DNA of 38,403 nt from a virus. Shown piece by piece: positions 9,510-38,403 of this stretch; within the stretch, counting starts at the first letter, position 1; each line of letters begins with the position of its first letter. The stretch spans positions 1 to 38,403 of IMG/VR virus record IMGVR_UViG_3300045988_055586. One strand, 5' to 3'. The position numbers were made by a program, and so were the translations under genes. The notes beneath the pieces were generated by a model that did no database searches, had not been told where the DNA came from, and saw only the letters and a program-made list of their open reading frames with translations.

Positions 9510-9535
9510 CGGACTTCTACCGGAAAGGAGAAGAG

Positions 9536-10663: not shown

Positions 10664-10721
10664 TGCTGTCAGAGCCGGGCGGGCTTACCCGTCCGGCGGG
10701 ACAGGGAAAGGACGGCTATAC

Positions 10722-10958: not shown

Positions 10959-10977
10959 GCGGCATCAAATAACACGG

Positions 10978-11010
10978 AGGAGGGAGAGGCGGTGGCTTCT
11001 CCCTCCTTTG
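10978..11010 (+). terminator. Terminator-like hairpin
   Basis: aggagggaga-loop-tctccctcct followed by ttg. The U-tract is short. Confidence 0.4.
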
Positions 11011-11028
11011 GCTAACAGGGAGAAAAAA

Positions 11029-11403
11029 ATGAAAGTACGAGAGGCGATAGAGCTGGCGGACGCTATGCGCCCGAACCAGTTTGATGAATCGGTAAAAATC
11101 AAATGGCTGTCCAAGCTGGACGGAATGCTGTTTGAAGAGATATTCAAAACGCATGAGGGGTGCCCGGCGGAGAGCTTCACGCCATACACGGAGCTAGACG
11201 GGGAGAAAGAGCTGCTGGTCCCGGCCCCCTATGACCAGGATGTTTACAACTACTTTTTGCAGGCGCAGATCGACGCCGAGAACGGGGAAGCGGCGAAGTA
11301 TAACCAGTCTATTACCCTATACAACGCGGCAGCAAAGCTTTTCGGCGACTGGTACAACCGCACGCATATGCCCATCGCGGCGGCGCGGGCACTGCTGTTT
11401 TGA
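11029..11403 (+). CDS. Hypothetical structural protein (possible head-tail adaptor)
   Basis: ATG 11029 follows GGGAGA. The listed ORF starts at TTG 11008, inside the hairpin. The functional call is from position only. Confidence 0.45.
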   Translation: MKVREAIELADAMRPNQFDESVKIKWLSKLDGMLFEEIFKTHEGCPAESFTPYTELDGEKELLVPAPYDQDVYNYFLQAQIDAENGEAAKYNQSITLYNAAAKLFGDWYNRTHMPIAAARALLF

Positions 11404-11416
11404 GAGGAGGGAGACC

Positions 11417-13195
11417 ATGCCGTTTTTTCCGACGGTGCAGGCACAGACAGCCCAGCGACGGGTGACAGATGTGTTTGCCGGGTACAACCACAACCTGCGC
11501 ATAAATGAAGGGGAATTTTACGACGAAGAGAATCTATGCTCCGACGACTACCCGCTGCTGTCTACCAGGCGTCATCGGGGAGTATATGCAGCGCCGGCGG
11601 CTGCACAGGGACTCATTGCCAAGGATGCGCTGTGCTATGTGGATGGGACGGAGTTTGTGATCAACGAAAAGCGGATCGAGATGGGGATCTCTACAGAAGC
11701 GGAAATGTGTCCTAAGAGCCTGGTGTCCATGGGCGCCTATGTGATAATCCTGCCGGACCGAAAGTACATCAACACGGCAGACCTGAGCGACTTCGGGAGC
11801 ATTGAGGCGAGCTACACCTCCGTGTCTGATGTAACCTTTAACCTGTGCACGGTGAACGGGGCCAGGCTGGATGTAATTGCAGGAGCAGCGGCACCGGAGA
11901 ACCCGAAAAACGGAGAATATTGGCTTGACACTTCGGCAACGCCTCACACACTGAAGGTTTACAGCGAAACCAGTGCCATGTGGATGTCCGTGGTTACGAC
12001 CTATGTGAAAATCTCCGCAACCGGCATAGGGGCGCAGTTTGAGCAGTATGACGGTGTGACCATCTCCGGTATTGTGAAAACCGGCGTGAAGGACCTGAAT
12101 GGGTCCGCCATTATATGGGCCAAGGATGAAAACTATATCGTTGTGGTGGGAATCCTGGACACGGAGATCACCCAGACGGCGGAGGAGGGTGCTGTCACCA
12201 TCGCCCGGAAGATGCCGGAGATGGATTTTGTCATTGAGAGCGGCAACCGGCTCTGGGGATGCAAGTACGGCATGGTGGACGGAAAGACCGTGAACGAGAT
12301 ATACGCCAGCAAACTGGGCGACTTTCGCAACTGGAACTGTTTCATGGGTATCTCCACGGACAGCTACGCGGCCTCCTGTGGTACGGACGGACAGTGGACA
12401 GGCGCCATCACGCACCTGGGCTACCCGCTGTTTTTCAAGGAGAATTGCCTACACAAGGTGTATGGAACTGCCCCATCCAGCTACCAGATACAGACCACGG
12501 CGTGCCGTGGCGTGCAGAAGGGGAGCGGTAAAAGCCTGGCCATAGTAAACGAAGTGCTCTACTACAAGAGCCGGGGCGGCGTGTGCGCATACGACGGGAG
12601 CCTGCCGGCGGAAATCTCCGATGCCTTCGGCGGCGTGCTCTATTCAGATGCGGTGGGCGGTGGACATCGAAATAAGTACTACCTAAGCATGAAGAATTCC
12701 GGCGGGATTTGGAACCTGTTTGTGTATGACGCAAGGCTGGGTGTTTGGCACCGGGAGGACAACACACACGCAAATGCCTGGTGCTCCTGCCGGGATGAGA
12801 TGTACTACATCGATGCGGCGGACGGAAAGATACGGACGGTGCTGGGCAGTGGCCAGACAGAGACGGGGAAAATACAATGGAGGGCAGAGAGCGGTCTCTT
12901 TGTATCCGTTCTGAGCAGCGCCAAGTATCCGGATTATGCGGCGGGCAAGAAGTATGTGGGGAGGCTGATGCTTCGCATGACGCTGGATCCCGGGGCCACC
13001 ATGCAGGCCTATGTGGAATATGATTCCTCCGGAGTGTGGGAGCAGCTGTGGAGCATGACGGGAAAGAACCTGCAAACCTTTACCTTCCCGGTGCGCCCCA
13101 GGCGGTGCGACCACTTTCGGCTGCGGCTGGTGGGGCAGGGCGGCGCGAAGCTCTACAGCCTTACCAAAACGCTGGAAAAGGGGAGTGATCTTTGA
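11417..13195 (+). CDS. Large tail/hub structural protein (possible nozzle)
   Basis: GAGGAGGGAG upstream of ATG 11417 (MPFFPTVQAQ...). The listed 11231 start overlaps the previous gene. Repetitive beta-rich ...LYYKSRGGVCAYDG... and ...MYYIDAADGKI... segments. Confidence 0.55.
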   Translation: MPFFPTVQAQTAQRRVTDVFAGYNHNLRINEGEFYDEENLCSDDYPLLSTRRHRGVYAAPAAAQGLIAKDALCYVDGTEFVINEKRIEMGISTEAEMCPKSLVSMGAYVIILPDRKYINTADLSDFGSIEASYTSVSDVTFNLCTVNGARLDVIAGAAAPENPKNGEYWLDTSATPHTLKVYSETSAMWMSVVTTYVKISATGIGAQFEQYDGVTISGIVKTGVKDLNGSAIIWAKDENYIVVVGILDTEITQTAEEGAVTIARKMPEMDFVIESGNRLWGCKYGMVDGKTVNEIYASKLGDFRNWNCFMGISTDSYAASCGTDGQWTGAITHLGYPLFFKENCLHKVYGTAPSSYQIQTTACRGVQKGSGKSLAIVNEVLYYKSRGGVCAYDGSLPAEISDAFGGVLYSDAVGGGHRNKYYLSMKNSGGIWNLFVYDARLGVWHREDNTHANAWCSCRDEMYYIDAADGKIRTVLGSGQTETGKIQWRAESGLFVSVLSSAKYPDYAAGKKYVGRLMLRMTLDPGATMQAYVEYDSSGVWEQLWSMTGKNLQTFTFPVRPRRCDHFRLRLVGQGGAKLYSLTKTLEKGSDL

Positions 13196-16972: not shown

Positions 16973-19900
16973 ATGAGTACAAAGGGCAGAGAAAACTGGG
17001 AAAAATACAAGGCTGGGTATGTAAGTACAAGGCTGGCTGAGGAAGTATCCACAGGGAATGCCGGGAGAGACAGCTGGAACGAGCTGAAAAAGACGATTCG
17101 ATTTGATAAGCCCGAGAGCACACAGAATGTGGCCTCGGGCAGCGGCGCACAGAAGGACAAAAAGTTCGACGCCGGACAGTACGCCGAGGATGCCGGGAAG
17201 CTGTTTCTAAACGGCGTGGTAGAAGGTGTCGCGGCAACGGGAGCAGCGGTGGAAAACTGGATCGGAAAGGGACTGGATAAGCTGTTCCCCGGCGCCGGAT
17301 TTGAGGGCAGCGGACTTTTCAATGTGCTCTATAATGGCCGTCCTGACTGGAAGTGGGCAGGAGAAAACGGCCTGGTGGGCATAAAGCAGGACCGGGAATA
17401 CAATCAAGCATCCTTGCAGGAAAACGCCGAGCGCATTGACGGAAAGGCAATGAAAAAGGCTGCAGAGTTCGGCGGAGACATCGCCTACGGACTGGGCAAT
17501 GCTGCACCTATGGCGGCGACAGCAATGGTGACCGGCGGCGCGTCAGCGGCAGCTGCGCTTACCAAGGAGGGATTGCTGAAAACGGGCGCGGAGGTCGTAG
17601 AAAAGTCGGGTGTCCTCAACTCAATGAGCCAGGCCGCACGAGATATGCTGACCAGCCGAGACTACTGGACGAGCTTTGCCTCCGAAGTGGGTATGGACTA
17701 CTACGACGCCCTGGATAGCGGCGCCACAGAAGACGAGGCCCTGCGATACGCGCTCTCCTCGGCGGGGATCAACTCCGTTATTGAAATCGGCGGCGGTATT
17801 CAGAGGATCCCCGAAAAACCTACCTTCAGGACCTGGCTGAAATCGGCCAACGAGGAAGGTATGGAGGAAATCCAGCAGGGGATCGTGTCCCGGCTGCTGG
17901 AGAATGTGGTCTACAACAAGGGGAACTCCATCGCGTCCGTCACGGACGAAAACGCGGTACTAAACCCCGTGACCGCGCTGGGCGAATACGCCGGCGGTGC
18001 AGCGGTGGGCGGAATCCTATCCGGCGGGCAGCAGCTGACCCAGCGAGGAATCAGTAATGCGCAGTATAAGAGGGCCTATAACCGAGGCATACAGGAAAAC
18101 GGCGTCACCGGGGCCAAGTACAACGCGGAGACCGGGAAGCTGGACGCCATCGTGAAGGACGATCAGGGCAAAATCAAAACCGTTCCGGCGGAGAAGGCGG
18201 AGCTTTCGCCGCTCCAGGAGGAACTATTCGACTGGGCGACAGATCTGGGCGAGGCTGGGCCGGTGCTGGTGAGCGCATACCGACAGACGCAGAACCTGGA
18301 AACCTACGCCCGGCAGTTCCACAATGCCTATGAATACGGCAAGGCAGGCGTGCCTATGGACTATGTGAATAAGTCCCAGGCGGTGAGCTATCTAAACACC
18401 ACTCAGCGGGAAATTGCCTACGAAGAGGGCGCAAAGGCACACCAACGGGAGCTGCAGGGCCGCCAGGAGAGGATGCGGTCCGGCGGGACCGTGGACACCA
18501 CTGCACGGAAAAAACCCGCTGTGAGCCTGCGAGGGGCCACGGTGGGAAGCGTAAAGTATGCACCGGTGAACAAGAAAGCCATGGATGGCCGACAGTGGGC
18601 CTCCGTGGGCACCATGAAAGCCTTTGCCCAGGCCACGGGAGTGAATGTGGTATTCTATGAGAGCCAGGCTAACGAGCGAGGCGAATATGAGGGTGCCAAC
18701 GGATTTTACAAGAACGGCACCCTGTATCTGGACATCAACGCCGGACGGGACCGGGTGGCGATGGGGGAGACGGCCATTTTGAAAACTGCCGCCCACGAGA
18801 GCACCCACTACATCAAGGAGGGCAGCCCGGAGCAGTACGAGGTGCTGAAAAACTTCGTTGTGGAAAAGTTGACCCGGGAGAAGGGCATCAGCTTTGACGA
18901 CCTGGTGACGGACAAGCAGCGCCGGGAGCCGGGGCTCTCCTACGAGGAGGCCGTGGACGAGGTGGTGGCTGACGCCTGCGAGATGATGCTCAAAGACAGC
19001 AAGGCGGTGGAGCAGCTGGCCCGGGAGAACCGCAGCCTGGCTGAGCGCATTCGCCAGTGGATCCGAAAGTGGGTGAGGAGCCTGAAGGCCGCCATGGAGG
19101 GCCTGACGGCAGACCGGCAGGAGAGCCGCGCCATGATGCAGTACGCCCAGGAGCTGCAAGAGATATGGGACAACGCCCTGGTGGATGCTGTCAGGAATGG
19201 CCGGGGTGTTGGAACCGGAAGGGCACAGTATTCCATCCGCGTCGTGGACGGAGAAACTATGACTGTGTTGGACACGGAAAATGATACCCGTAGCTTTGAT
19301 GCCGCCGAGAAATATCTGAAGGCACTGGTGGACACGAAGCACCCGTTTGCCACAATTCTTGCAGATGCACAGCCGGTCTACATTGGAAAGGATCTGCCGG
19401 GCGAGTATAGAAGCTCTGAATACACAAAGGGTATGGAGGCTAAACTGCGTCCGGTAAAAATGCAGGCCGCAACAAACCTTGACGAAATGCTGCTCCTTGC
19501 CGAGAACGGCGAATGGCGCGAGAATGTGAAAGACAAGCACAAAACTGATGCTCAAAATGGGTGGTACCGCTATGATGCACGATTCGAAGTACCGATTCTG
19601 AACGAAAAGAAGGCCGTAGACCATTACACGGTTTACGGCGGAACGCTTCTGATTCGCAATGACGCAGACGGAAAATCCTATTTGTACGACCTTGTGGACA
19701 TAAAAAAAGAGAAGAGAATCAGCACAGCCTCCTTCTCTGCCCGAGGGCATTCGGAGGTATTGGCGCCAAAACCTTCTCAACAACAGTATATGCAGGAGCA
19801 GAAGAAAAGTCAAGAAAAAAGTAATGAAAAAAGTAATGAAAAAAGTAATGAAAAAGTGCAGTTCTCCATGCGGGAGCCTGTGGAGGAAACCCGCGACCTA

Positions 19901-22900
19901 ATAGCACTGCACAACATGACGCTGGACAACCTACGGGGAGCCCTGAAGCTGGGCGGCCTGCCCATGCCCAGCATTGCCATCGTCAAGGCAAAGAGTGGAC
20001 ACGATCAGTATGGCCCGATCTCTCTGGTTTTCAGAAAGGATACTATTGACCCGCAGCTGTTCCGCAGCAACAAGGTGTATGGCTATGACGCATGGACGCC
20101 GACTGCGCCCCGCATTGAGTATGAAGTCAATGAAAAGGCGGCAGACAAGCTGCGTGAACTATATTACAGAATGCAGCGGGAAAAGGGCCGCGATTTCGCA
20201 GCTCCATTGTACTCTGTGGCAAACACGCTGGAGGACGAGTTGAACAACAAGGGGGGACTGGATAAGGTTGTTGATACGATGCGAGATGACACGCGCATCA
20301 TGCAAATTTATCTGGAAGACACGGGCGCTGGCTCTGTGGCAAATGTTATGCGGAAAAATGTGTCGCGTATGAGTGAAGGCGAAATCGAAATGGCACAGGC
20401 GTTGACGGAAAAGCTGGGTGAAAAGACAATCCAAAGCATCAGCGCACAGACGGGAGAATCGCCGTTTTCTGCAAGACGCCGCTGGTTTGCAAAGTATGGA
20501 GAGGCTGTAAATGATGCGCTGACTGCATATTACGAGCAGGAGGGTATACCTCATGAGGAAGCTCTGCGCGCAGTGGAGGCTGAGACAACAGCCAACAAGA
20601 TCAAGAGCGTGCTGCTTGCAAGAAAGTATCTAAACGGAAACGCTGAGGTTATAACGGAGGAGGTGGACCGGGAGGCCACAGACAAGGCAATCCGGGAGAA
20701 GGTTAATCAGGATTCGTATGACCAGTGGTTGGAGGGCCTGTTTTCCGGTGTGGTGAAAAATTCCGGCATTTACAACGGAAAAGATTACTACACAGCTTCC
20801 GGTAATCGGAGAAGTTTTTCTGCAACCCATTATGAAGTCAATCTGGAAAACACTGTGCGGGCCATGAAGCAGGGCGACCAGACTGGCGTGGGAACATTCT
20901 TTGGCGGACAGGCAATCTGGGGCGTAACCGCAAAGGATTACAGGTCCATAGAGGAAATTAAAGAAGACTCCGGACGGCTGCAGAAGCTATCAGAAGAAGA
21001 ATACAGCCAGATTCGCCAGCAATTCACAGAGAGGCTGGCAAACATCACCAGCGAGATCATGGACAAGAATAACGGGAACGAGTTCACCGCTTCGGACGAT
21101 GCGGCGAGTGCCATTGTGGAAACACTGCGAACCAAGCATACCGTGAAAGCAATCGACAAGGAGCTGCGCACCTATCCGACCCTGCACATTCAGCCGGACA
21201 CGGCGCAAAAGGTGTTTGATTTGTGCCGGGACATTTCCAATATGCCAACGGGCTATTTCGAGGCAAAGCCGCAGCGAGCAGTTGGATTTGACGAGGCGGC
21301 GGCTGTGGTGGTGCCGGACAACCTGCCCGCAGATTTGCGGAAGGGGCTGGAGCAGATTGGCGCAACGGTACGAGAGTACAAGGCAGGAGACGAGCAGAGT
21401 CGGCTGGAGGCCGTGAATGCCGATGAGCGGGTGCGGTTCTCTCTGCGTAGTGTACCCCCTGTAAAGCCCAAAAATGGGGGTTGGGAACGAGGAGCAACTT
21501 TCGATGAAGTGAAGACTGAACACCCAACATTATTTGCTCTCGATGCGGATGAATCGAGTACAAGGAATCCAACTCAGATATCGGGAACCGTAAAAAGTTA
21601 TAGAAAAATTTTCGATGCGCTGAAAGAGGAGGGGTTTGACGGAACAATTCTTGATGCGAGCTCCGGGCTCGGATATGGCACACGCTTAGGCCGAGAAGAA
21701 TATGGGTATAGAGTAGATGACATTGAGCCGTTCCCGGACGCGAAATATAAACCAAGATACACGGACTATTCTGCTCTGGATAATACTTACGATGCGATTA
21801 TAAGCAACGCCGTTCTGAATGTTATACCGCAAGATTTGCGGGATGCAATGGTTGTCAAAATAGGCGAGCTGCTGAATCCGGGCGGGCGAGCATTTATCAA
21901 TGTGCGTGGCACTGATGTTAAAAATGCCAGCAGCAAAGTGGCAATCAACGAAAGTGGAATGGAGTATTTCATATCCAATACGGGCAGCTATCAGAAGGGG
22001 TTCACGACGAAAGAATTAGTTGCATATCTACGGGACGCGCTTGGAGACGGGTTCACGGTGCGGGCTACAAACAAGTTCGGAGCAGTAAGCGCTATTGTAA
22101 CCAAAAACGAAGAAAGAGCGCAATCCCAGCAGCGGGAGCCGCGCCTATCGGATCGGGCCGTGCTGGAGTGGGCGGCGGAGATGGCGCTGCGGGACAAAAA
22201 CAAGAGCTGGACGGCGGAGGACCGGGAGCAGCTGGAGCGGTTCCGCAACCGGATGCGTATGCTGCAAGACACCCAGGCGGAGCTGGAGGCCCTGAAGGAG
22301 GAGCGAAAGGTCCTCCTGGCCGGGCGGAAGGTCTCGGAGATCAAGGGTGAGGAGCGGGTCGAGGTGACCAAAAACAAGAACCGCATCGACATCGCCAAGA
22401 ACAAGGCGGAGCGCTACGAGGCGGCGGTGTGGGAGCTGGAGTCCAAGACGGCCATCAAGACTCTGCTGAAGAAATCCCGCAGAATTGTGGAAACCGAAGC
22501 GTCCGACCAGGCCCGGAAGGAATATCGGGAACGGCAAGAGGAGCGGGAAATGGTGAATGTTACCCGGCGAAAGGTGGAGCGAAACGCCAAGCGCCTGCTG
22601 GAGTACATGAACACCAATACCGACAAAAAGCACATACCGGAGGCCCTGAAAAAGCCTATCGGGGAGCTGCTGGAATCGCTGAATTTCTACTCCAATTCTG
22701 CCCGCAGGGGCGGCTACACCAGCCGGGCAGACCTGAAATACTACGAGGCCATGCAGGGATTGCAGGCCGCGCTGGCAACGCAGCGAGCATTTGAAGACAC
22801 CGGGGAAGGCACGGATGTATTCAAGGGATATTTAGACCTTCCGGCGGGATTTGAAAGCCTGCTGGCCGTCCATGTAGAGCGGGTAAAAAATGTCGTAGAA

Positions 22901-25474
22901 AAGCACCCACTTAAAACCGATGTCTTAAGAATGATGGACCTGGGAGACCTGAGGGATTTGGATGTGATCCTGTCTGTGATGAGCCGCAGTGTGACGAAGA
23001 TGAACGAAATGTTCATAAAAAGGCGGTTTGCCTATGTGGCGGACGCGGCAGAGGATTCCATCATCGCCATGCAGCGCCTGGGACAGCACCAGGATAAGCC
23101 CGGAGAACGGTTTGCTCTGTGGGACAATACGCTGCCCTGGTACGCCTTCCAGCGCTTCGGCGAGGGCGGCAAGGCGGTGTTTGAGGGGCTGCAGGACGGA
23201 TGGGACAAGCTGGCCTTTAACATGAAGACAATCCGCGACTTTAGACAGAGCCTCATAAGCGATGCACTGGCCCGGAAATGGGACACAGAGACCCACAAGG
23301 TGGAGCTGACGGACCCGGACGGGTCCGCGGTGACGGCCACGCTGACGACGGCACAGCTCATGAGCCTCCGGTGCCTGTCCAAGCGTAAGCAGGCCCTGGG
23401 CCATCTCCTGGGCGGCGGCATAAGACCGGATGCCATCGAGATAACAAACACCCTGGGCGATAAAATCAAAAAGAAGAAGTGGAACCAGGACAAGCAGTTC
23501 AAGCTGACGGAGGGATCCCTGGGGCAGCTGCTGAAGCTGCTGACACCGGAGCAGATCAAGGTGGCGGACGCCATGCAGAAGTTCATGACCGAGCAGGGGT
23601 CCGCCTGGGGTAATGTGATAAGCATGGAACGCTTCGGGTATCGGGCATTCACGGAGCAGAACTATTTCCCCATCGAAACGGATCGGCAGGACCGGGAGGC
23701 GAAAACCGGAGATGCCAAGGAGGGCAGCCTGTATAGGCTACAGAACATATCGGCAGTAAAGCCGCTGGTAAAGAATGCCAACAATGCGCTGATCCTGCGG
23801 GGCATCTTCGATGTGTTTGCAAACCACACGGCGGATATGGCAAAGTATAACGCTATGGTGCTGCCTATCATAGATGCTCAGAAGTGGTATAACTACCGAT
23901 ACGGTGAGAAAAACGAGGCAGGTCAGGTGAACACCAGGACCGTGCAGCGTGCCATGACCAAGGCCTACGGAGAAGTGGCTAACAACTTCGTTATCAAGTA
24001 TTTGCAGGACCTGAATGGAGTAAAGGAAAACGGCGACCGGGGCGACACCATCCCCAAGCGGATGATCTCCAACTATAAGCGGGCCATGGTGGCCGCCAAT
24101 ATGCGCGTGGCCCTCTTACAGCTGACGGCCTATGCGCGGGCCTCGGCGGTGCTGGACTACAAGTACCTGGCAAAAGCGTTCACGGACAAGACCGGCACTA
24201 AGCAGGCCACGAAGGAAATGATGGAGAACAGCGGTATTGCTCTATGGAAAAGCCTGGGGTTCTTCGACACCGATGTGGGCCGCTCCATCCGCGACCAGAT
24301 CAAGGGCAAGAGCAGCAAAATCGATGATCTTGTGGACAAAACTATGGTTCCGGCGGAAAAAGGCGATGAAGTGACCTGGGCGCGGCTGTGGCGTGCCTGT
24401 AAGCTGGAGGTGCAGGACAAGCAGCATCTGACAGGGGAGGAACTGCTGAATGCAACAGCGGAGCGGTTCCGGGAGGTTATCTATCGGACGCAGGTAGTAG
24501 ACTCCACTATGACCCGAAGCCATACCATGCGTGGGAGCGGGACCCTGACCAAGATGGCCACCAGCTTTATGAGCGAGCCCACGGTGAGCTACAACATGGT
24601 GATGGAGTCCACACGGCAGATCGCGGAGGACGCCAAGCGTATGGGACTGCGCACGGCCATCCGGCGGAACTGGAAAACGGCTGGGCGGGCCTACCAGGCA
24701 TATATCGTATCGGCCATTGTGACGGCCATAGTGGAATCGCTCTATGACGCCCTGCGGGATTCAGACGACGACAAATACCTGGACAAGGTGTGGAAAGCTC
24801 TGGGTGGAGAAAAGCCGGAGACGGTGAAGGATGGGATTCTGGATGTGATCTTTGGCCTGAACGGAAACCTTGCGGGGGATATTAACCCCATCGGGAAGGT
24901 GCCGTACCTGCGGGATGTGGTGAGCATCCTCGGCGGCTACAGCAACGGGCGCATGGACACGGAGGCCGTGGCAAACCTGAAAAAAGCAATCGACATCTGG
25001 GACGAAGTGATCCGCTTGCAGACCGGAGACCTTGACAAGGCTACCAAGACCACCTACTACGGCAATATGACCACCTATGGGATGATCTATCCCACCGCTA
25101 AGGCGCTGTCACAGCTTACGGGGCTGCCGGGATCGGCGGCTATGCGCGAAGCGGCTACGGCGTGGAATACAACGGTGGGGACGGTGTGGCCGGCACTCAA
25201 AATGCGTACCTACGAGGATAAAAAGCTCCGGGAGGCCTGGGAGAACTACGGCAAGGACTCTGGTGTGAGCTATGCGGTCATGTACCGAGCTATCCAGGAT
25301 TTGAAGGAGATTGAGAGTGACCGGGACGCCGACGGAAACGCCATTAGCGGATCCCTGAAGGCGAAGTATGTGGAATATATTCGCGGAATGGGCCTGACGA
25401 GGGCGCAAGAAAAGGCTGTGTGGGAGGCGGCGAAGAATTCCTCCTGGAGCGACAAAGGGACCCCGTGGGGGTAA
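16973..25474 (+). CDS. Giant polyvalent virion/ejection-type protein (2,833 aa) with zincin metallopeptidase-like and SAM-methyltransferase domains
   Basis: AAGGAGG upstream of ATG 16973. HESTH at nt 18794-18808 (aa 608-612) in LKTAAHESTHYIKEG. MTase motif I ILDASSGLGYGT from nt 21647 (aa 1559), then DDIEP, AIISNAVLNVIP and LLNPGGRAFINV. Long coiled coils. Uninterrupted ORF. Confidence 0.85.
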   Translation: MSTKGRENWEKYKAGYVSTRLAEEVSTGNAGRDSWNELKKTIRFDKPESTQNVASGSGAQKDKKFDAGQYAEDAGKLFLNGVVEGVAATGAAVENWIGKGLDKLFPGAGFEGSGLFNVLYNGRPDWKWAGENGLVGIKQDREYNQASLQENAERIDGKAMKKAAEFGGDIAYGLGNAAPMAATAMVTGGASAAAALTKEGLLKTGAEVVEKSGVLNSMSQAARDMLTSRDYWTSFASEVGMDYYDALDSGATEDEALRYALSSAGINSVIEIGGGIQRIPEKPTFRTWLKSANEEGMEEIQQGIVSRLLENVVYNKGNSIASVTDENAVLNPVTALGEYAGGAAVGGILSGGQQLTQRGISNAQYKRAYNRGIQENGVTGAKYNAETGKLDAIVKDDQGKIKTVPAEKAELSPLQEELFDWATDLGEAGPVLVSAYRQTQNLETYARQFHNAYEYGKAGVPMDYVNKSQAVSYLNTTQREIAYEEGAKAHQRELQGRQERMRSGGTVDTTARKKPAVSLRGATVGSVKYAPVNKKAMDGRQWASVGTMKAFAQATGVNVVFYESQANERGEYEGANGFYKNGTLYLDINAGRDRVAMGETAILKTAAHESTHYIKEGSPEQYEVLKNFVVEKLTREKGISFDDLVTDKQRREPGLSYEEAVDEVVADACEMMLKDSKAVEQLARENRSLAERIRQWIRKWVRSLKAAMEGLTADRQESRAMMQYAQELQEIWDNALVDAVRNGRGVGTGRAQYSIRVVDGETMTVLDTENDTRSFDAAEKYLKALVDTKHPFATILADAQPVYIGKDLPGEYRSSEYTKGMEAKLRPVKMQAATNLDEMLLLAENGEWRENVKDKHKTDAQNGWYRYDARFEVPILNEKKAVDHYTVYGGTLLIRNDADGKSYLYDLVDIKKEKRISTASFSARGHSEVLAPKPSQQQYMQEQKKSQEKSNEKSNEKSNEKVQFSMREPVEETRDLIALHNMTLDNLRGALKLGGLPMPSIAIVKAKSGHDQYGPISLVFRKDTIDPQLFRSNKVYGYDAWTPTAPRIEYEVNEKAADKLRELYYRMQREKGRDFAAPLYSVANTLEDELNNKGGLDKVVDTMRDDTRIMQIYLEDTGAGSVANVMRKNVSRMSEGEIEMAQALTEKLGEKTIQSISAQTGESPFSARRRWFAKYGEAVNDALTAYYEQEGIPHEEALRAVEAETTANKIKSVLLARKYLNGNAEVITEEVDREATDKAIREKVNQDSYDQWLEGLFSGVVKNSGIYNGKDYYTASGNRRSFSATHYEVNLENTVRAMKQGDQTGVGTFFGGQAIWGVTAKDYRSIEEIKEDSGRLQKLSEEEYSQIRQQFTERLANITSEIMDKNNGNEFTASDDAASAIVETLRTKHTVKAIDKELRTYPTLHIQPDTAQKVFDLCRDISNMPTGYFEAKPQRAVGFDEAAAVVVPDNLPADLRKGLEQIGATVREYKAGDEQSRLEAVNADERVRFSLRSVPPVKPKNGGWERGATFDEVKTEHPTLFALDADESSTRNPTQISGTVKSYRKIFDALKEEGFDGTILDASSGLGYGTRLGREEYGYRVDDIEPFPDAKYKPRYTDYSALDNTYDAIISNAVLNVIPQDLRDAMVVKIGELLNPGGRAFINVRGTDVKNASSKVAINESGMEYFISNTGSYQKGFTTKELVAYLRDALGDGFTVRATNKFGAVSAIVTKNEERAQSQQREPRLSDRAVLEWAAEMALRDKNKSWTAEDREQLERFRNRMRMLQDTQAELEALKEERKVLLAGRKVSEIKGEERVEVTKNKNRIDIAKNKAERYEAAVWELESKTAIKTLLKKSRRIVETEASDQARKEYRERQEEREMVNVTRRKVERNAKRLLEYMNTNTDKKHIPEALKKPIGELLESLNFYSNSARRGGYTSRADLKYYEAMQGLQAALATQRAFEDTGEGTDVFKGYLDLPAGFESLLAVHVERVKNVVEKHPLKTDVLRMMDLGDLRDLDVILSVMSRSVTKMNEMFIKRRFAYVADAAEDSIIAMQRLGQHQDKPGERFALWDNTLPWYAFQRFGEGGKAVFEGLQDGWDKLAFNMKTIRDFRQSLISDALARKWDTETHKVELTDPDGSAVTATLTTAQLMSLRCLSKRKQALGHLLGGGIRPDAIEITNTLGDKIKKKKWNQDKQFKLTEGSLGQLLKLLTPEQIKVADAMQKFMTEQGSAWGNVISMERFGYRAFTEQNYFPIETDRQDREAKTGDAKEGSLYRLQNISAVKPLVKNANNALILRGIFDVFANHTADMAKYNAMVLPIIDAQKWYNYRYGEKNEAGQVNTRTVQRAMTKAYGEVANNFVIKYLQDLNGVKENGDRGDTIPKRMISNYKRAMVAANMRVALLQLTAYARASAVLDYKYLAKAFTDKTGTKQATKEMMENSGIALWKSLGFFDTDVGRSIRDQIKGKSSKIDDLVDKTMVPAEKGDEVTWARLWRACKLEVQDKQHLTGEELLNATAERFREVIYRTQVVDSTMTRSHTMRGSGTLTKMATSFMSEPTVSYNMVMESTRQIAEDAKRMGLRTAIRRNWKTAGRAYQAYIVSAIVTAIVESLYDALRDSDDDKYLDKVWKALGGEKPETVKDGILDVIFGLNGNLAGDINPIGKVPYLRDVVSILGGYSNGRMDTEAVANLKKAIDIWDEVIRLQTGDLDKATKTTYYGNMTTYGMIYPTAKALSQLTGLPGSAAMREAATAWNTTVGTVWPALKMRTYEDKKLREAWENYGKDSGVSYAVMYRAIQDLKEIESDRDADGNAISGSLKAKYVEYIRGMGLTRAQEKAVWEAAKNSSWSDKGTPWG
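19814..19856 (+). repeat. 12-bp tandem repeat (gaaaaaagtaat x3 plus a partial unit) encoding (EKSN)n linker
   Basis: Read directly from the sequence. Encodes QEKSNEKSNEKSNEKV inside the giant ORF. Confidence 0.9.
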
Positions 25475-28596: not shown

Positions 28597-29446
28597 GGTA
28601 TTTCTCTCCCCCAGCAACCAATATGACAATCGCTACGCCTATGGCAACACTACTGAAGGTGAGCAGTGCGGCAAGATCGCTGAGGCCTGCAAGGCCGCCC
28701 TGGAGCGCAGCGGCGTGACCGTGAAGCTGATGCACGACGAATCCATGCAGGAGAAGGTAGCAGCCTCCGATGCTTTTGATGCTGATCTCCATGTGCCCAT
28801 CCACACCAACGCCTTTAACGGCACAGTGAGCGGCACCCGGATGTTCTACTATGCCGAGGGCGGGGAAGGTCAGAAGGCTTGTCAGGCCATTTTTAACCGG
28901 CTGGCCCCGGTCACCCCCGGCACCAGCGAGAATATCCGGGCAGACGCCTCCCTCTACGAGGTGCGGGTGCCTGCCGCCCCTACGGCCTATATTGAGTGCG
29001 AGTTCCACGACAACCCCACTGCGTCAAAGTGGATCGTGGAAAATACCGGGCTTATCGGGGAGACCATTGCCCGGGGCATCTGCGACTACTTCGGTGTGAC
29101 CTTCCGGGAGAAGGAGCAGGCCCAGCCCGCCAAGTCCGTGGACGAGGTTGCCCGGGAGGTGATCCGCGGCGAGTGGGGCAATGGATCCGACCGCCGCCAG
29201 CGCCTGGAGGCAGCAGGGTACGACTATAATGCTGTACAGGATCGAGTGAACGCTATCCTGACTGGCGATGCGCCGGAGCAGCCCACTCCTGCCGAGCCGG
29301 TAGAGCCATCCCCCGAGCCGGAGCAGCCCGCCACCGATAAGCTCTACCGCGTCCAGGTCGGCGCCTTCGCCGTCCGAGAAAACGCCGAGAAGATGCTCCA
29401 GCGCTTGAAAGACGCTGGCTTCGAGGGCTACATCCGAGAGGGGTAA
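28589..29446 (+). CDS. Endolysin: N-acetylmuramoyl-L-alanine amidase (Amidase_3-like), CW_7-like repeat and SPOR-like C-terminal segment
   Basis: VFLSPSNQ...LHVPIHTNA...YIECEFHDN; EVIRGEWGNGSDRRQRLEAAGYDYNAVQDRVN; P/E linker; YRVQVGAFAVRENAEKMLQRLKDAGFEGYI. Confidence 0.85.
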   Translation: MPKVFLSPSNQYDNRYAYGNTTEGEQCGKIAEACKAALERSGVTVKLMHDESMQEKVAASDAFDADLHVPIHTNAFNGTVSGTRMFYYAEGGEGQKACQAIFNRLAPVTPGTSENIRADASLYEVRVPAAPTAYIECEFHDNPTASKWIVENTGLIGETIARGICDYFGVTFREKEQAQPAKSVDEVAREVIRGEWGNGSDRRQRLEAAGYDYNAVQDRVNAILTGDAPEQPTPAEPVEPSPEPEQPATDKLYRVQVGAFAVRENAEKMLQRLKDAGFEGYIREG

Positions 29447-30805: not shown

Positions 30806-31117
30806 ATGAAAGAGATCAAGATGCTGGTGGAAAACATCGGCGAAGAGCTGGGCGATGCCCGGAAGTATGCCAAGCTGGCATTAAAGTATAAGAGCGAGGA
30901 CCCCGACATGGCAAACCTGTTCTATAAACTGGCGGGGGAAGAAATGGGTCACATGAACGCGCTGCATCAGTGCGCGGTGACACACATCGAAGCCTACAAG
31001 CGCTCCAATGGAGAGCCGCCCGAGGCCATGGCTGCCGTCTACGACTATCTCCACGAAAAGCAGATAGAGAAGACACAGGAGATCAAGAATCTGCTGGCAA
31101 TGTACCGGGAGATGTGA
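30806..31117 (+). CDS. Ferritin-like / four-helix-bundle small protein
   Basis: 103 aa. GEELGDARKY...AGEEMGHMNALH...YDYLHEKQIE resembles the E...EExxH di-iron ligand spacing of ferritin-like folds. Confidence 0.45.
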   Translation: MKEIKMLVENIGEELGDARKYAKLALKYKSEDPDMANLFYKLAGEEMGHMNALHQCAVTHIEAYKRSNGEPPEAMAAVYDYLHEKQIEKTQEIKNLLAMYREM

Positions 31118-31140
31118 GGACGGTAAAGGCAAATTTAGAG

Positions 31141-31248
31141 TTAAAAGGTGTAAGGGCCACCATACTGACTGATAATCACCGCCGCCAGCTTCGGGTTTGG
31201 GTTGGCGATGCGTACAGGATATTGCAGTTTTTTTTCATATACAAACAT
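31141..31248 (-). pseudogene. cotJC: cotJC (Mn-catalase-family spore coat protein) 5' stub, 35 codons only
   Basis: Minus-strand translation MFVYEKKLQYPVRIANPNPKLAAVIISQYGGP then YTF*. This matches the conserved CotJC N-terminus (MW.YEKKLqyPV...P.lA..l..QyGG) and then stops. The TGATG overlap with the upstream gene is preserved. Confidence 0.75.
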
Positions 31249-31718
31249 CAGCTATTTCCTCCTTCGTCCCAAGGCCACGGATCATTGAGCCAGCGGTAGC
31301 CGTCGGGTGTGATGTCAGTCTGCAGAATCGGGCCGTAGGTCTCCTGGTAGCGCTTGCGTCCCTCCTGAGCCAGAGCAATATAGCTCCAGTACAGCTCCAA
31401 AGCCTCCCGATCATCCGCATGGGTGGTCAGATAAAGCCCCAGTTCATCCACGGCGAAGTCCAGGGCCATCAGTTCGGATAGAGCGCTGTTCACGGTCGGA
31501 AAGCGACTTTTCAGCTCTTTTTGAAAGGGCAGGTCCAACCCTGGAAATAGCGTTCCCTGTTGTAGCGCCTCCCGGCGGTCATACTGTTTAGGGTTCTTGC
31601 ACTGCATGGGAATATAAGGAAAAGCCAGCGGTGCGCATACGCCGGGCAGTGAACCCTGCTGTGTGGGGCAGGACGCCGACTCCATGCCCGCGGCAGATTT
31701 TTCCGTATACAATTTCAT
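31248..31718 (-). CDS. cotJA/cotJB: CotJA-CotJB fused spore-coat-associated protein
   Basis: GAGGAGGA upstream of ATG 31718. CotJA block LAFPYIPMQ...EALQQGTLFPGLDLPF. CotJB block LMALDFAVDELGLYLTTHADDREALELY...YGPI...WLNDPWPWDE. Confidence 0.8.
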   Translation of the reverse strand: MKLYTEKSAAGMESASCPTQQGSLPGVCAPLAFPYIPMQCKNPKQYDRREALQQGTLFPGLDLPFQKELKSRFPTVNSALSELMALDFAVDELGLYLTTHADDREALELYWSYIALAQEGRKRYQETYGPILQTDITPDGYRWLNDPWPWDEGGNS

Positions 31719-31817
31719 TTCCTCCTCATAGGGTTTTGTTCCGCACGGAACACTCCATTTTATGCAGCGGAAAAAGAAAAGGGGACAGGGGATTGTCATT
31801 TGCGGTCAAATGTGATA

Positions 31818-31846
31818 GAATGAATCGGGAACACGGCGCATACAAT
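31818..31846 (+). promoter_or_regulatory. SigmaE-type (mother-cell) promoter candidate: GAATGAA-14 nt-CATACAAT
   Basis: Compared with the B. subtilis sigmaE consensus ZHATAXX-14-CATACAHT, it matches 6/7 and 8/8. The -10 element ends 25 nt before the cwlD start. Confidence 0.45.
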
Positions 31847-31871
31847 GACCCGAAAGGGGAGAGGTGTCGTG

Positions 31872-32417
31872 ATGGTGTTGCTGAAAAAAAGGACTCTGCT
31901 GTCGGTCTGCGGAGCCTTAATCTTGGCTCTTGGGGCGGTGTGCGCCCTGTATATTTCCCGGGACAAGCCGGCCATGTCCACCGTAAGGCCGCTGCCCTCC
32001 GCAGAGATTCTGGTCCTGGATGCCGGACACGGCGGGGAGGACGGCGGAGCGGTCTCCGCAGCCGGAGTGCCGGAGAGTCATATCAATTTGCAGATCGTGC
32101 AAAAAATGGAGCAGCTTTTCACCTTTGTAGGGGAGAGCACTACCCTCACGCGCACCGGTCCGGACGCCATCTATTCCGGCGATGCCAAAACCCTTCGGGA
32201 GAAAAAAATTTCCGATCTGAATAACCGCGTGGAGATGATAAATCAAACACCCCGTGGCTTTCTGATCAGCATCCATCAAAATAGTCTCCCGGGCACCAAG
32301 GCCCGGGGCGCCCAAGTGTTTTATAACGCCGTAGCCCCCGCTAAAGACGCCGCTGTCTCCGTGCAACAGGCGCTTAACAGCGGTATTAACGGTAACAACC
32401 GAAAAAATGCCGGATAA
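31872..32417 (+). pseudogene. cwlD: cwlD-like germination-specific amidase, 3'-truncated (lacks the E.GF.SN catalytic block)
   Basis: Signal-anchor, then LVLDAGHGGEDGGAVS...ESHINL...FLISIHQNSLPGTKARGAQVFY, ending at ...NNRKNAG*. Full-length CwlD continues for ~55 aa including ..EvGFLSN... Confidence 0.7.
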
Positions 32418-32440
32418 GACAGGCCGGGGACGGCATAGGG

Positions 32441-32647
32441 ATGAAGGAGGTGGTTTTGCATGGCGAAAAGACAGCGGGAGCCTATCATTGTGAAAGCATA
32501 TGTGAAGACGGCGGCGAGGTGGATGTAGATACCCTCACTCCGGAGCAGAAGCGTGCGTTTGCCACGCAGATGAAGATCACCTACCTGAATGCCCTGTTCC
32601 GGGGCCAGGCGGTATTTCGGCGGGCAGAAGAGGGGGCAGAGGCATGA
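32441..32647 (+). CDS. Hypothetical protein (start/frame uncertain)
   Basis: 68-aa ORF. A better-placed RBS (AAGGAGG) serves an ATG at 32460 in another frame that stops after 22 codons. Confidence 0.4.
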   Translation: MKEVVLHGEKTAGAYHCESICEDGGEVDVDTLTPEQKRAFATQMKITYLNALFRGQAVFRRAEEGAEA

Positions 32648-32925
32648 GGAGCGGATATTGCGCTCTGTGCGGCAAACCCGGGACCTACCTGGACCCCCTG
32701 GACAAGCACCACATATTCGGCGGAAGCAACCGCCGCAACAGCGAGAAGTACGGACTTGTGGTGCCGCTGCACCATAAGGAGTGCCATATTTTCGGCAAGC
32801 AAGCCGTCCATAACTGCCGGGAGACCATGGAGAGGCTTCACCAAATGGGGCAGAAGCTGGCCATGGAGCAGCAGGGATGGACGGTGGAGGAGTTCCGGGA
32901 GATCTTCGGACGGAGCTACCTATAA
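32644..32925 (+). CDS. HNH/NinG-like Cys-His protein
   Basis: CALCGK...DKHHIFGGSNR...PLHHKECHIFG. Confidence 0.45.
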   Translation: MRSGYCALCGKPGTYLDPLDKHHIFGGSNRRNSEKYGLVVPLHHKECHIFGKQAVHNCRETMERLHQMGQKLAMEQQGWTVEEFREIFGRSYL

Positions 32926-35126: not shown

Positions 35127-35237
35127 ATGAACGAGTTTACAGGCCAGGCGCTGGAGCGGCTGGGGAGAGAATATAGCACCGTGAAAGGGCAAAAGGCCGG
35201 AGCTATGAAAGAGGGCGTGCGGGAGGGCAAGAAATGA
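35127..35237 (+). CDS. Hypothetical 36-aa protein
   Basis: GGAGGGAAAGG upstream. The stop overlaps the MTase ATG (ATGA). Confidence 0.3.
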   Translation: MNEFTGQALERLGREYSTVKGQKAGAMKEGVREGKK

Positions 35238-36046
35238 CTGCGAAACTGTATCACGATAATTTCCAAAATTACAAGAAATACGGAATACCAAAAGCCCAGC
35301 TTGTGATTGCGGATATACCCTACAATATCGGCGCAAATGCCTATGGAAGTAACCCCATGTGGTATAACGGCGGGGACAATGCCAACGGGGAGAGCAAATT
35401 TGCCAAAAAGTCGTTTTTTAATTCCGACGGATATTTTAAGATCGCGGAGTATATGCACTTTTGCTCCCGGCTGTTGAAACCGGAGCCGAAGCAAAAAGGG
35501 AAAGCTCCGGCGATGATCGTATTTTGCGCATTTGATCAAATCCAAACGGTGGCGGAGTACGGCGCACGGTATGGATTCAAAAACTGGTATCCCGTTTTCT
35601 TCTGCAAAAACTATTCTGCCCAGGTACTTAAAGCAAATATGCGTATTGTTGGCGCCACTGAATTTGCCGTGGTTCTTTACCGGGACAAGCTGCCTAAATT
35701 TAACAACGGGCGTGAGCTGGACGAGAACGGAAAAGCTATTCGCGGAACCGGTAAGATGGTGTTTGACTGGTTTCAGTGGGAGCGGGATGGAAAGGATATT
35801 CCCAAAATCCACCCCACGCAAAAGCCGGTGAAGGTTTTGAAGCGACTTATCGAAATATTTACCGATCCGGGGGATGTGGTAATTGACCCGTGCGCCGGTT
35901 CCGGGGCGACGCTTCGGGCGGCGGAAGAGATGGGGCGGAAAGCATACGGCTTTGAAATTGATCGGAATTTTTGCCGCTTGGCAAATGAAAAAATGCTTGT
36001 GACCCGGGAAGATGGACAAATTTCTATGCTGGGGGTGCAAGGATGA
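35234..36046 (+). CDS. Beta-class DNA amino-methyltransferase (N6-adenine or N4-cytosine)
   Basis: Motif IV VIADIPYNIG precedes motif I HPTQKPVKVLKRLIEIFTDPGDVVIDPCAGSGAT. Confidence 0.85.
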   Translation: MTAKLYHDNFQNYKKYGIPKAQLVIADIPYNIGANAYGSNPMWYNGGDNANGESKFAKKSFFNSDGYFKIAEYMHFCSRLLKPEPKQKGKAPAMIVFCAFDQIQTVAEYGARYGFKNWYPVFFCKNYSAQVLKANMRIVGATEFAVVLYRDKLPKFNNGRELDENGKAIRGTGKMVFDWFQWERDGKDIPKIHPTQKPVKVLKRLIEIFTDPGDVVIDPCAGSGATLRAAEEMGRKAYGFEIDRNFCRLANEKMLVTREDGQISMLGVQG

Positions 36047-37938
36047 TATTTGCGCAGGAGACGATGACGGAGGAGATTATCGTCGACAACTTTGCCGGTG
36101 GCGGCGGTGCGTCTACCGGAATTGAACTGGCTACCGGGAGACAGGTGGCGATTGCCATTAACCATGACCCGGATGCCATACTTATGCACCGCACGAACCA
36201 CCCTTATACGGAACACCTGCAGGCGTCTGTTTGGGATGTAGACCCTAAATCCGTATGCAGAGGCCGCCCCGTGGGTCTTGCGTGGTTTTCACCGGACTGC
36301 AAGCACTTCTCCAAGGCCAAGGGTGCGGCCTTGGTGGACCGCAAAATTCGCGGCCTTGCGTGGATCACGCTTCGCTGGGCAGCGGAGGTGCGGCCTCGAG
36401 TCATCATCCTGGAAAATGTAGAGGAATTTCAGACCTGGGGGCCTGTGCGTAAGGGCAAGCCAGTGAAGAAGCTGGCAGGAACGACTTTCCGGCGGTTTAT
36501 CAGACAGCTTGAGGCGCTGGGCTACACCGTGGAGTTCCGGGAATTGGTGGCGGCAGACTTCGGAGCGCCTACCTCCCGCAAGCGGTTTTACATGATTGCC
36601 CGCTGTGACGGCAAGCCCATCGTGTGGCCGAAGCCCACCCATAGCAAGACCGGCGCGGATGGACTGTCTAAGTGGCGCAGCGCGGCGGAGGTCATCGACT
36701 GGACGTTGCCGTGTCCGTCTGTATTCGCATCCAAGGCGGAGATCATGGAAAGGTACGGCCTGAAAGCTGTTCGGCCTCTGGCGAAGAACACCATGCGGCG
36801 GATAATACGGGGCGTGGACAAGTTCACCATCCGGAGCGGCAAGCCGTTCATCGTACAGCAGAAATTCCAGAACGCTGCGCAGAACATCGAAAAGCCATTG
36901 ACGACTGTTACGGCGGTAGGAGCGCATGAATTGTGCAAGCCGCTGCTGGCTCCCGTGACGGTGACCAACACCAGCAACAGCGTGGGGGCGACTGTCGGCG
37001 AACCGATGAACACGGTGAGAACCGGCGGCGGAGGCGGCCAGATGCTGGTGACGCCGTTCCTTGCGGAGTGCAACCACTCCGGCGGCGGACATATTGCGCC
37101 TGTGACAGATGCACACAAGACCATTACGGCAAAACACACCGGAGGTATCGTGGCGCCCACGCTGATTCAGTATCACGCGGAGAAGACGGAGAGCGTCCGT
37201 GCTTCCGGAGTGGGATCGCCCATCAACACCGTGGACGCGTCCAACCGCTACGGCCTGACCTGCGCCAGTTTGGTGGAGTATTACACCGGCGGCAGGCCGT
37301 TGGATATGGCAGACCCGATGCACACCGTTACAAGCCATGACCGGGAGGCGGTGGTAGCGGCACATATCGCTAAGTATTACGGCGGCGTGGTGGGTGAAAA
37401 GGCAGTGGAACCGTTGCCTACAGTAACAGCCATTGACCACAATGCGGTCTGTGCCGCACATGTTGTTAAGTTCAAGGGTAACGATCTGGGACATGGAGCA
37501 AAGGAACCGCTGCAGACCGTGACCGCAAGCGCCGGCGAGTTTGCCGTGTGCAAGGCACATCTGGCGAAGATACGAAGCGGTGATGATCTGGGCCACTGGC
37601 CAGAGATACGCGACCTTCTGAACGAGTTCTGCGGATACGCGCTGGCGGAGGACGAGGTGCTTCTGCTGAAGATCGGCAAAAACCTGTACTACATCGCGGA
37701 CATCGGGCTGCGGATGCTGTCACCCCGAGAGCTGTACAACGCTATGGGTTTTCCACCCGATTATATCATCGATCGGGACTATTTGGGGAACGAATACGGG
37801 CGAAGCAAGCAGGTGGCCCGTTGCGGCAATGCCGTGTGCCCACCGGTGGCGTCTGCGCTGGTGCGCGCAAACCTTCCGGAGTGGTGCGGAAAGAAAATTG
37901 CTACGATGGCAGAACTGTTGGAGGAATTAGCGGTATGA
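36043..37938 (+). CDS. DNA (cytosine-5)-methyltransferase with expanded seven-module variable region
   Basis: Motif I DNFAGGGGAS, IV FSPDCKHFSKAKG, VI ILENVEEF, VIII SRKRFYMIA, then RELYNAMGFPPDY and GNAVCPPVA. Seven P-x-x-T-V/I-T modules lie between 36892 and 37599. Confidence 0.85.
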   Translation: MIFAQETMTEEIIVDNFAGGGGASTGIELATGRQVAIAINHDPDAILMHRTNHPYTEHLQASVWDVDPKSVCRGRPVGLAWFSPDCKHFSKAKGAALVDRKIRGLAWITLRWAAEVRPRVIILENVEEFQTWGPVRKGKPVKKLAGTTFRRFIRQLEALGYTVEFRELVAADFGAPTSRKRFYMIARCDGKPIVWPKPTHSKTGADGLSKWRSAAEVIDWTLPCPSVFASKAEIMERYGLKAVRPLAKNTMRRIIRGVDKFTIRSGKPFIVQQKFQNAAQNIEKPLTTVTAVGAHELCKPLLAPVTVTNTSNSVGATVGEPMNTVRTGGGGGQMLVTPFLAECNHSGGGHIAPVTDAHKTITAKHTGGIVAPTLIQYHAEKTESVRASGVGSPINTVDASNRYGLTCASLVEYYTGGRPLDMADPMHTVTSHDREAVVAAHIAKYYGGVVGEKAVEPLPTVTAIDHNAVCAAHVVKFKGNDLGHGAKEPLQTVTASAGEFAVCKAHLAKIRSGDDLGHWPEIRDLLNEFCGYALAEDEVLLLKIGKNLYYIADIGLRMLSPRELYNAMGFPPDYIIDRDYLGNEYGRSKQVARCGNAVCPPVASALVRANLPEWCGKKIATMAELLEELAV

Positions 37939-38148: not shown

Positions 38149-38403
38149 ATGGATGCCGTAAAATTTTTGCAGGAACGGAATCGGATGTTTTTGAGCGGGG
38201 CGGCCACTCCGGGCATTGAGCTGGAGGATGATTTTGACCCGGTTAAAGTGGTTGAAATCATCGAAAGGTGGAGTGTGCAACACCCTCGCAGGACACGGCA
38301 AGATGTGTTTTTGGAGCAGTGGCCAAATGCGTATGTTAATGAGTCGGATGGTTTATTAGTAATCGGCCCCTGCGTTGTAGACGAAACGCAGAAGAAAAAA
38401 AAC
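38149..38403 (+). CDS. Junction-spanning small Cys-rich protein, 5' part (continues at nt 120 and stops at 191; 108 aa in total)
   Basis: AGGAGG 7 nt upstream of ATG 38149. Open to the window end. Translation is MDAVKFLQERN...VVDETQKKKN, then RRCGTKKENCYQCRQEYWMQEAK* from the window start. Confidence 0.7.
   Translation, partial: MDAVKFLQERNRMFLSGAATPGIELEDDFDPVKVVEIIERWSVQHPRRTRQDVFLEQWPNAYVNESDGLLVIGPCVVDETQKKKN
38285..38403. repeat. Terminal direct repeat, copy 2
   Basis: Identical by eye to 1-119. Confidence 0.95.

Follow-up and report, generated by a model that had tools for sequence, protein, structure and literature searches.

A phage genome that very probably arose by aberrant excision of a prophage from the sporulation gene cotJC of an uncultured Oscillospiraceae bacterium

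How does a phage genome come to hold a piece of a bacterial sporulation locus that breaks off within a gene at either end? The question is raised by a stretch of viral DNA of 38,403 nucleotides (IMG/VR virus record IMGVR_UViG_3300045988_055586, positions 1 to 38,403; hereafter 'the window'), in which positions 31154-32411 consist of part of a cwlD-like amidase gene, a divergent intergenic region, a fused cotJA-cotJB gene and the beginning of cotJC. A first-pass annotation, made from the sequence without database searches, had described this as a captured cwlD-cotJABC piece and proposed three origins for it: cargo that lets the phage interfere with coat or cortex assembly, a homology arm for integration of a phage that has no integrase, or the remnant of an aberrant excision. 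The last of these is the one borne out, through an exact prophage attachment site (attL) on the left of the segment, an illegitimate joint on its right and the absence of the block concerned with integration and lysogeny. With high probability the window descends from a temperate phage that infects an uncultured Oscillospiraceae bacterium, as a deletion-substitution derivative formed by aberrant excision.

The segment comprises the following features, with lengths of proteins in amino acids (aa) and ORF denoting an open reading frame.

31141-31248, minus strand: cotJC stub, a 35-aa ORF of which residues 1-32 match positions 1-32 of 284 in Pfam Mn_catalase/CotJC (PF05067; E 1e-8)
31248-31718, minus strand: intact cotJA-cotJB fusion of 156 aa, with CotJA (PF11007; E 3e-13) and CotJB (PF12652; E 2e-23) domains
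31719-31871: divergent intergenic region between cotJAB and the cwlD-like gene, lying within the ungapped host alignment of 97.8% identity
31872-32417, plus strand: truncated CwlD-like amidase of 181 aa, matching positions 2-121 of 174 in Pfam Amidase_3 (E 5e-21)

An exact-protein look-up of the window's CotJA/B product recovered an uninterrupted bacterial locus (L004), a 3.7 kb bacterial-type contig encoding an amidase of 239 aa, a CotJA/B of 156 aa, a CotJC of 198 aa and a MerR gene. Window positions 31154-32411 align with it over 1,258 bp at 97.8% identity, with 28 mismatches and no gaps, and at both ends of the segment (31154 and 32411) the similarity falls abruptly to noise. The best match among genomes, the metagenome-assembled genome (MAG) SFNH01000035, is 97.3% identical at the nucleotide level across the same 1,258 bp. 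These sharp-ended, ungapped matches uphold the earlier description of a bacterial piece cut at both ends, and also its suggestion that the segment would serve to identify the host, which is placed by them in an uncultured Oscillospiraceae lineage. A scan of species-representative genomes returned 52 loci, all of Oscillospiraceae type (Oscillibacter, Dysosmobacter, Vescimonas and unnamed MAGs).

The captured DNA takes in 180 of 239 CwlD-like codons, the divergent intergenic region, the whole CotJA/CotJB fusion and 32 of 198 CotJC codons. The cotJC stub is 100% identical to residues 1-32 of the 198-aa host protein, which confirms the truncation after about 32 codons that had been predicted; it continues with YTF and a stop supplied by the phage arm of the attachment site, residues 33-198 are gone and the full ferritin-like catalase domain of CotJC (PF05067) is not present in the window. 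A TGATG overlap joins the cotJAB stop to the cotJC start. The CotJA/B protein is 100% identical to the copy in the uninterrupted bacterial locus and, as a single 156-aa ORF, passes the Pfam gathering scores for both of its families (CotJA, 49.8 bits against 25; CotJB, 82.7 bits against 29). The fusion and its coupling to cotJC thus stand as first annotated, but they are not special to the phage: fused CotJA/B was matched in one piece in all 52 of the Oscillospiraceae loci retrieved, which makes the fusion a trait of the host lineage rather than a phage oddity.

The amidase ORF consists of 180 host codons followed by a Gly codon and a stop from the end of a 48-aa phage gene; the called gene uses the 181-aa start at 31872, an alternative 190-aa start having been rejected. 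The phage copy lacks the last 59 residues of the host protein, among them the ECGF block with the catalytic Glu, so the early end first put at about 55 aa is real, but the name CwlD needs loosening. The best NCBIfam family is indeed CwlD (TIGR02883), to which the window copy aligns at positions 2-136 of 189, but the scores of the window copy (122 bits) and of the full-length host protein (176 bits) both fall below the cut-off of 221.55. Since even the complete host protein misses it, the gene is termed 'CwlD-like'.

Where the left end of the segment falls was established from the neighbouring phage gene and from the attachment sites in bacterium (attB), phage (attP) and prophage ends (attL and attR).

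30806-31117, plus strand: last phage gene before the attachment site, encoding a 103-aa ferritin/rubrerythrin-like protein whose Pfam Rubrerythrin match is weak
31118-31153: P' arm (phage side), TTACACCTTTTAACTCTAAATTTGCC... in cotJ orientation, aligning to the P' arm of wild-type attP and to the attL of lysogens
31154-31164: core of 11 bp, TATGGTGGCCC in cotJ orientation, common to attB, attP, attL and attR and corresponding to cotJC codons 29-32

The exact 103-aa protein is indexed in 415 collection blocks, though the modules around it are mosaic. The contexts of its gene were read in 24 contigs, in which it is always followed either by attP and a serine recombinase gene, in free phage, or by the cotJC stub and host chromosome, in lysogens. 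Free-phage contigs of about 42 kb run from the 103-aa gene through a short spacer to a 487-aa protein with Resolvase, Recombinase and Zn_ribbon_recom domains, whose best NCBIfam matches (CcrB, CcrC and XisF) are all below cut-off; then come a 198-aa helix-turn-helix (HTH) protein, a 35-aa gene, a CI-like 127-aa repressor, several small genes and the 48-aa gene. Next in these free phages stand genes of 63, 93, 110, 178, 196 and 113 aa, the same as those that follow the host segment in the window. In lysogen contigs of 51-85 kb (L136, L139, L141 and L143) the order is instead the 103-aa gene, attL, a cotJC stub of 35 aa, the length of that in the window, then cotJAB, a full amidase of 239 or 240 aa, radA and further host genes. 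The opposite prophage end was recovered by way of the exact 93-aa protein encoded at 32644-32925: on this attR side lie the host MerR gene, the 3' part of cotJC (150 aa), the recombinase and the prophage. The lineage therefore splits cotJC into codons 1-32 at attL and codons 33-198 at attR, the gene being intact in L004 and in L006. On this sequence evidence, the contigs show that the wild-type lineage integrates at cotJC codon 32 by means of the 487-aa large serine recombinase, and that the host segment of the window corresponds to the DNA directly adjoining attL in lysogens.

All four attachment sites were recovered. In cotJ orientation, and with a slash at the boundary between half-sites, attB reads ...ATCAGTCAGTATGGTGGCCC/GGACGGCGAATTAGG and attP reads CGTAATCGTAGTTAAGTGGTATATGGTGGCCC/TTACACCATTTAACTATAAATTTGCC; attL combines the B arm with the P' arm and attR the P arm with the B' arm. 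The left junction of the window is base-for-base of the attL type in this comparison, host similarity beginning at 31154 and wild-type phage similarity reaching 31164, and as judged from these alignments it is an exact attL, with 31154-31164 as the crossover region of the serine recombinase. The arms of wild-type attP (L137) form an inverted repeat of 18 nt each, 83% complementary, of which the window holds the P' half and the core only, the partner half being absent. A half-site motif resembling GGNCC/TTACACCATTAAACTACAAA follows cotJC codon 32 in 20 Oscillospiraceae genomes and is shared by the window. The wild-type relatives have nothing beyond the 11 bp core in common with the host.

The right end of the segment is of a different nature.

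32404-32411: novel illegitimate joint, as delimited by BLAST, where host similarity stops at 32411 and wild-type phage similarity resumes at 32404
32412-32647, plus strand: resumed phage backbone, in which the final codon and stop of the 48-aa gene are followed, after a 38-nt spacer, by the 63-aa gene, first of the retained early block

In a three-way comparison the host reads ACCGAAAAAATGCC/AAGC, the wild-type phage GGCGAAAAGGCC/GGATAA and the window ACCGAAAAAATGCC/GGATAA, so that cwlD codon 180 is linked to the last codon of the 48-aa phage gene. Three bases are exactly common at the joint (GCC, 32409-32411), within an imperfect CGAAAA..GCC patch of about 10 nt, as would result from illegitimate recombination at a short microhomology. 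By inspection the joint bears no likeness to the att half-sites beyond GGCC-GGA; action of the serine recombinase on a pseudo-site was also considered as its origin and judged unlikely, neither parent resembling the att half-sites. From 32412 onward the window is collinear with wild-type phages and lysogens at 93-97% identity. What is missing is a block of 4.96-5.5 kb that holds, in the wild type, the P arm, the recombinase, the HTH genes and small genes, and tblastn with the 14 proteins of the deleted block found no remnants in the window. The large serine recombinase that all wild-type relatives and lysogens have beside the attachment site is missing from the window, and profile searches found no integrase domain on any window gene, in agreement with the earlier view of a phage with no integrase.

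Such a structure might in principle be a chimera of assembly, the circle being a phage contig falsely joined to the chromosome of a lysogen. One gut sample can contain host, lysogen and phage sequences with long identical stretches in common, and short Logan contigs break near the region. The joint is nevertheless crossed at 100% identity by four contigs of separate assemblies (L001, L002, L003 and L134), and the left junction likewise by L001, L002 and L005. The joint occurs in two full-length circular contigs (ERZ28667139 and ERZ27261414), which carry different assembler naming styles, and in short contigs from ERR1137613 and ERR1136648. Moreover, the three exact or roughly ten imperfect bases that the parents share there are far below any assembly k-mer, which excludes an error of the k-mer graph. 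The window also closes on itself: an exact repeat of 119 bp (1-119 and 38285-38403) matches an assembly k-mer overlap, making the contig a closed circle of about 38.28 kb and a real, circularly assembled phage genome. An artefactual join is, on these grounds, scarcely credible.

The arrangement is the one that aberrant excision predicts: an intact attL, flanked by the host DNA that adjoins attL in the chromosome, a joint at microhomology and the loss of the attR-proximal end. A prophage at cotJC codon 32 would have left its lysogen by an illegitimate join and not by recombination between attL and attR. One end of that join would have been cwlD codon 180, 1,258 bp outside attL, and the other the end of the 48-aa phage gene, about 5 kb inside attR. 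In the circle of 38.3 kb so formed, attL would have remained with the host DNA next to it, from cotJC codons 1-32 through cotJAB and the intergenic region to 180 codons of cwlD. Left behind would have been the recombinase and the P arm of attP, the CI-like repressor and one further HTH regulator, the region of the rightward early promoter and some ten small genes. The stub of cotJC is present because it lies 5' of the attachment site, and the integrase is missing because it was lost in the same event. The variant would consequently be unable to integrate site-specifically and, with the CI-like repressor also gone, probably could not maintain lysogeny. At 38.28 kb it is 9-10% shorter than the wild type of about 42 kb and so should still be packageable; a complete structural and lysis module, the circular assembly and a size within that of the wild type are indirect signs to this effect. 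The captured genes would be passengers, cotJAB intact and the cwlD and cotJC pieces non-functional fragments.

Several observations weigh against this explanation, or at least against the variant's having become an established phage. The event is read from its product; no parental lysogen identical to the window was found, the closest host copies departing from it at 28-36 of 1,258 positions, a distance that strain diversity covers. The variant copies are all 100% identical and, to judge by the sample names, three or more of the four datasets may derive from a single cohort or even a single person, so that they need not reflect independent spread as a viable phage. The exact joint was not found in JGI metagenome contigs; a search of IMG/VR with the P' half-site gave no match, and one for relatives of cotJAB gave none. 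Finally, it has to be asked how the early genes are expressed once the early promoter region is lost, and the promoter scans that bear on this return counts no higher than in shuffled sequence.

That question concerns the strong rightward promoter-like site of the wild type (TTGACA, 17 nt, TATTAT in a consensus scan), which lies inside the deleted block, and one site brought in with the host DNA.

31793-31821, plus strand: sigma-70-like site in the host intergenic region (TTGTCA, 17 nt, TG-TAGAAT), at consensus level only

A consensus scan of the window found no other plus-strand promoter-like site upstream of the early genes. With the host-derived site the only one left there, read-through from the cwlD promoter region may drive them. 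It is possible, if on balance unlikely, that the host piece thereby makes the deletion mutant viable: the operator having gone together with the repressor and the rightward early promoter, the cwlD promoter region (31793-31821 and any adjoining sporulation-type promoter) would read through the truncated cwlD into the early genes of a lytic derivative without repressor or integrase, under a promoter possibly linked to sporulation, and the same arm could also recombine with host chromosomes or with resident wild-type prophages.

A stronger role for recombination, in which the host piece is maintained as a 1.26 kb homology arm and lets the phage, lacking an integrase, enter the chromosome by RecA-dependent Campbell recombination, is improbable. 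In its favour stand the length of the arm, its identity of 97-98% to host copies and the lack of an integrase, and the anatomy of the piece, with two 5' ends around a divergent promoter region, means that a single crossover would leave a full cwlD and a full cotJ operon. The left end of the arm, however, is the very crossover site of the serine recombinase, and it is precisely the attR-proximal end of the prophage that is missing, both of which point to an error of excision and not to selection; the loss of the CI-like repressor makes a stable prophage state doubtful, and no contig joins the variant's joint to a full-length cotJC. The first-pass annotation, which had seen this option as fitting the lack of an integrase, was right about the lack, but excision explains it and no contig of the integrated form is known.

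Compared with six host copies, the fragment shows 28-36 differences, against 14-41 among those copies themselves; five substitutions are private to the window, all of them synonymous or intergenic. This fits a recent capture from an unsampled strain. A dN/dS comparison (non-synonymous to synonymous substitution) of the captured genes was dropped because the differences lie within host strain diversity and only five are private. The strain-diversity comparison gives no evidence for or against a function in the phage. Selection as adaptive cargo, by which the captured genes would alter the assembly of spore coat or cortex in infected sporulating cells, could draw on the intact cotJAB with its native upstream region and a protein identical to the host copy, as well as on the character of the five private substitutions. 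A fragment within the range of host strains nevertheless carries no signal of evolution inside the phage, its ends are set by the attachment site and the illegitimate joint and not by gene boundaries, and its amidase is without the catalytic ECGF region; no relative of cotJAB was found in a search of IMG/VR, and the piece occurs in none of the wild-type relatives examined. Interference with coat or cortex is accordingly very improbable, and the earlier suggestion of it is not sustained. Aberrant excision remains the preferred account.

Beyond the segment, the window encodes a large terminase, a P22-type portal, a major head protein and tail proteins, a holin and an endolysin with Amidase_3, CW_7 and SPOR modules for lysis, and a polyvalent internal protein of 2,833 aa. 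One gene crosses the ends of the contig.

38149-38475: gene of 108 aa running across the contig ends

The 2,833-aa ORF (16973-25474, plus strand) has a PBECR5 nuclease domain and matches phrog_22978; its wild-type counterparts range from about 2,250 to 3,200 aa with varying domains (MuF_C, ART-PolyVal and LPD23), and it looks like a modular polyvalent internal protein. Two neighbouring DNA methyltransferase genes at 35234-37938 on the plus strand, N6_N4_Mtase (270 aa) and C5 DNA_methylase (631 aa), are replaced in relatives by PAPS reductase, PcfJ/DUF3102 or other methylases, an exchange that marks the block as a variable anti-restriction region. Just ahead of the packaging genes, a minus-strand pair at 3489-4186 encodes proteins of 93 aa (HTH_3) and 133 aa (assigned to no known family). 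The pair, also found in some wild-type relatives (L147 and L149), may represent a second regulator or something like a toxin-antitoxin pair, and matters for the question of whether the variant retains any repressor.

Only two unannotated faecal phage fragments in the GenBank phage collection match the window, at about 70% identity. IMG/VR scans with the 103-aa and 93-aa proteins brought up only distant mosaic phages without cotJ sequence, two of them with distant serine-recombinase homologues. In a single comparison the 103-aa protein resembles CotJC residues 35-69 (30% over 37 residues around EExxH, E 0.005); kinship between the two was set aside, the weak similarity being taken as a common ferritin-like signature only.

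The gene into which this lineage inserts is a recurrent target. Among the 52 Oscillospiraceae species-representative genomes (L006-L057), cotJC is interrupted in about 34, roughly two thirds, and intact in 18, although some interruptions lie at contig ends (L014, L015, L022 and L049). Four sites recur: after residue 32 (about 20 genomes), after residues 64-70 (8), after residue 136 (4) and after residue 178 (2). Serine-recombinase homologues adjoin several junctions of each class, and element sizes include 1.9 kb (L053) and 5.2 kb (L027). For instance, Oscillibacter ruminantium has a 5.2 kb element after residue 32 with a 488-aa large serine recombinase beside the 3' part of cotJC and, next to the recombinase, a homologue of the window's 63-aa gene. 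A different element occupies the codon-32 site in MGYG-HGUT-02595 (6560-12462 of a 164 kb contig, L008); its products are a 352-aa protein, a ribbon-helix-helix protein and one of 1,360 aa with an amidase/SPOR module at its end, and in places the element resembles the window's endolysin (28603-29436) and giant protein (22105-23785 and 18782-19206). Near the insertion site, about 1-2 kb from the cotJC/MerR locus, some contigs carry host type I-C CRISPR-Cas genes (Csd1, Cas7 and Cas4; L146, L147 and L149, positions 1-2800).

Since about two thirds of the related species genomes retrieved have a split cotJC, elements that intervene in sporulation genes may be widespread among spore-formers of the gut. 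The window brings to light a lineage of phages that target cotJC with a serine recombinase, ties the phage to a specific uncultured Oscillospiraceae host and defines a new integrase/att pair in the 487-aa recombinase and its sites with an 11 bp core. It is also a clean natural case of capture of the kind seen in specialized transduction, of which public assemblies contain every piece: the unoccupied site, the phage in its free form, the two ends of the prophage and the product of the error. It offers an explanation for oddly truncated host fragments in phage genomes, and cautions against reading them as adaptive cargo.

The specialized transducing phages of lambda, carrying gal or bio, are products of aberrant excision, and the window parallels them closely. 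As in lambda bio, an intact hybrid att site connects the phage to the host DNA beside one prophage end, and phage DNA of the opposite end, including the integration genes, is lost; as in gal and bio phages alike, the novel joint is an illegitimate crossover at a few common bases and the genome is within packaging size. The two differ in that lambda uses a tyrosine integrase and this lineage a large serine recombinase; in that the target here lies inside a sporulation gene and the repressor and early promoter region were also lost; and in that the variant is known from metagenome assemblies alone. The window is a natural example of a textbook process and not a new kind of system. Some phages have attP sites that copy part of a target gene, such as the 3' end of a tRNA gene, which integration then restores. 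The window is like them in that its host-identical sequence ends exactly at the crossover site, but theirs amounts to tens of bases within a functional attP accompanied by an integrase, whereas here 1.26 kb replaces the P arm and the integrase.

Elements that split sporulation genes by means of large serine recombinases include skin in sigK (SpoIVCA), SPbeta in spsM (SprA) and vfbin in spoVFB. The interruption of spsM by SPbeta has been described (PMC4191935), and prophages or prophage-like elements with large serine recombinases likewise interrupt gerE (PMC5595907) and yabG (PMC10747680). The list of targets in 10.1101/2021.11.22.469490, citing Abe et al. 2013, includes cotJC, and a skin-like element has been found in cotJC of Laceyella sacchari (10.1101/2022.02.25.481979). 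The wild-type relatives of the window resemble skin and SPbeta in splitting the sporulation gene cotJC at a fixed codon and in encoding a large serine recombinase similar to CcrB and XisF beside attR. The window itself, having lost half of attP along with the recombinase, no longer counts as an element of this kind. The lineage further differs from the known cases in its gut Oscillospiraceae hosts and its P22-type portal; the wild-type phages join the known serine-recombinase elements that split sporulation genes, now in Oscillospiraceae of the gut.

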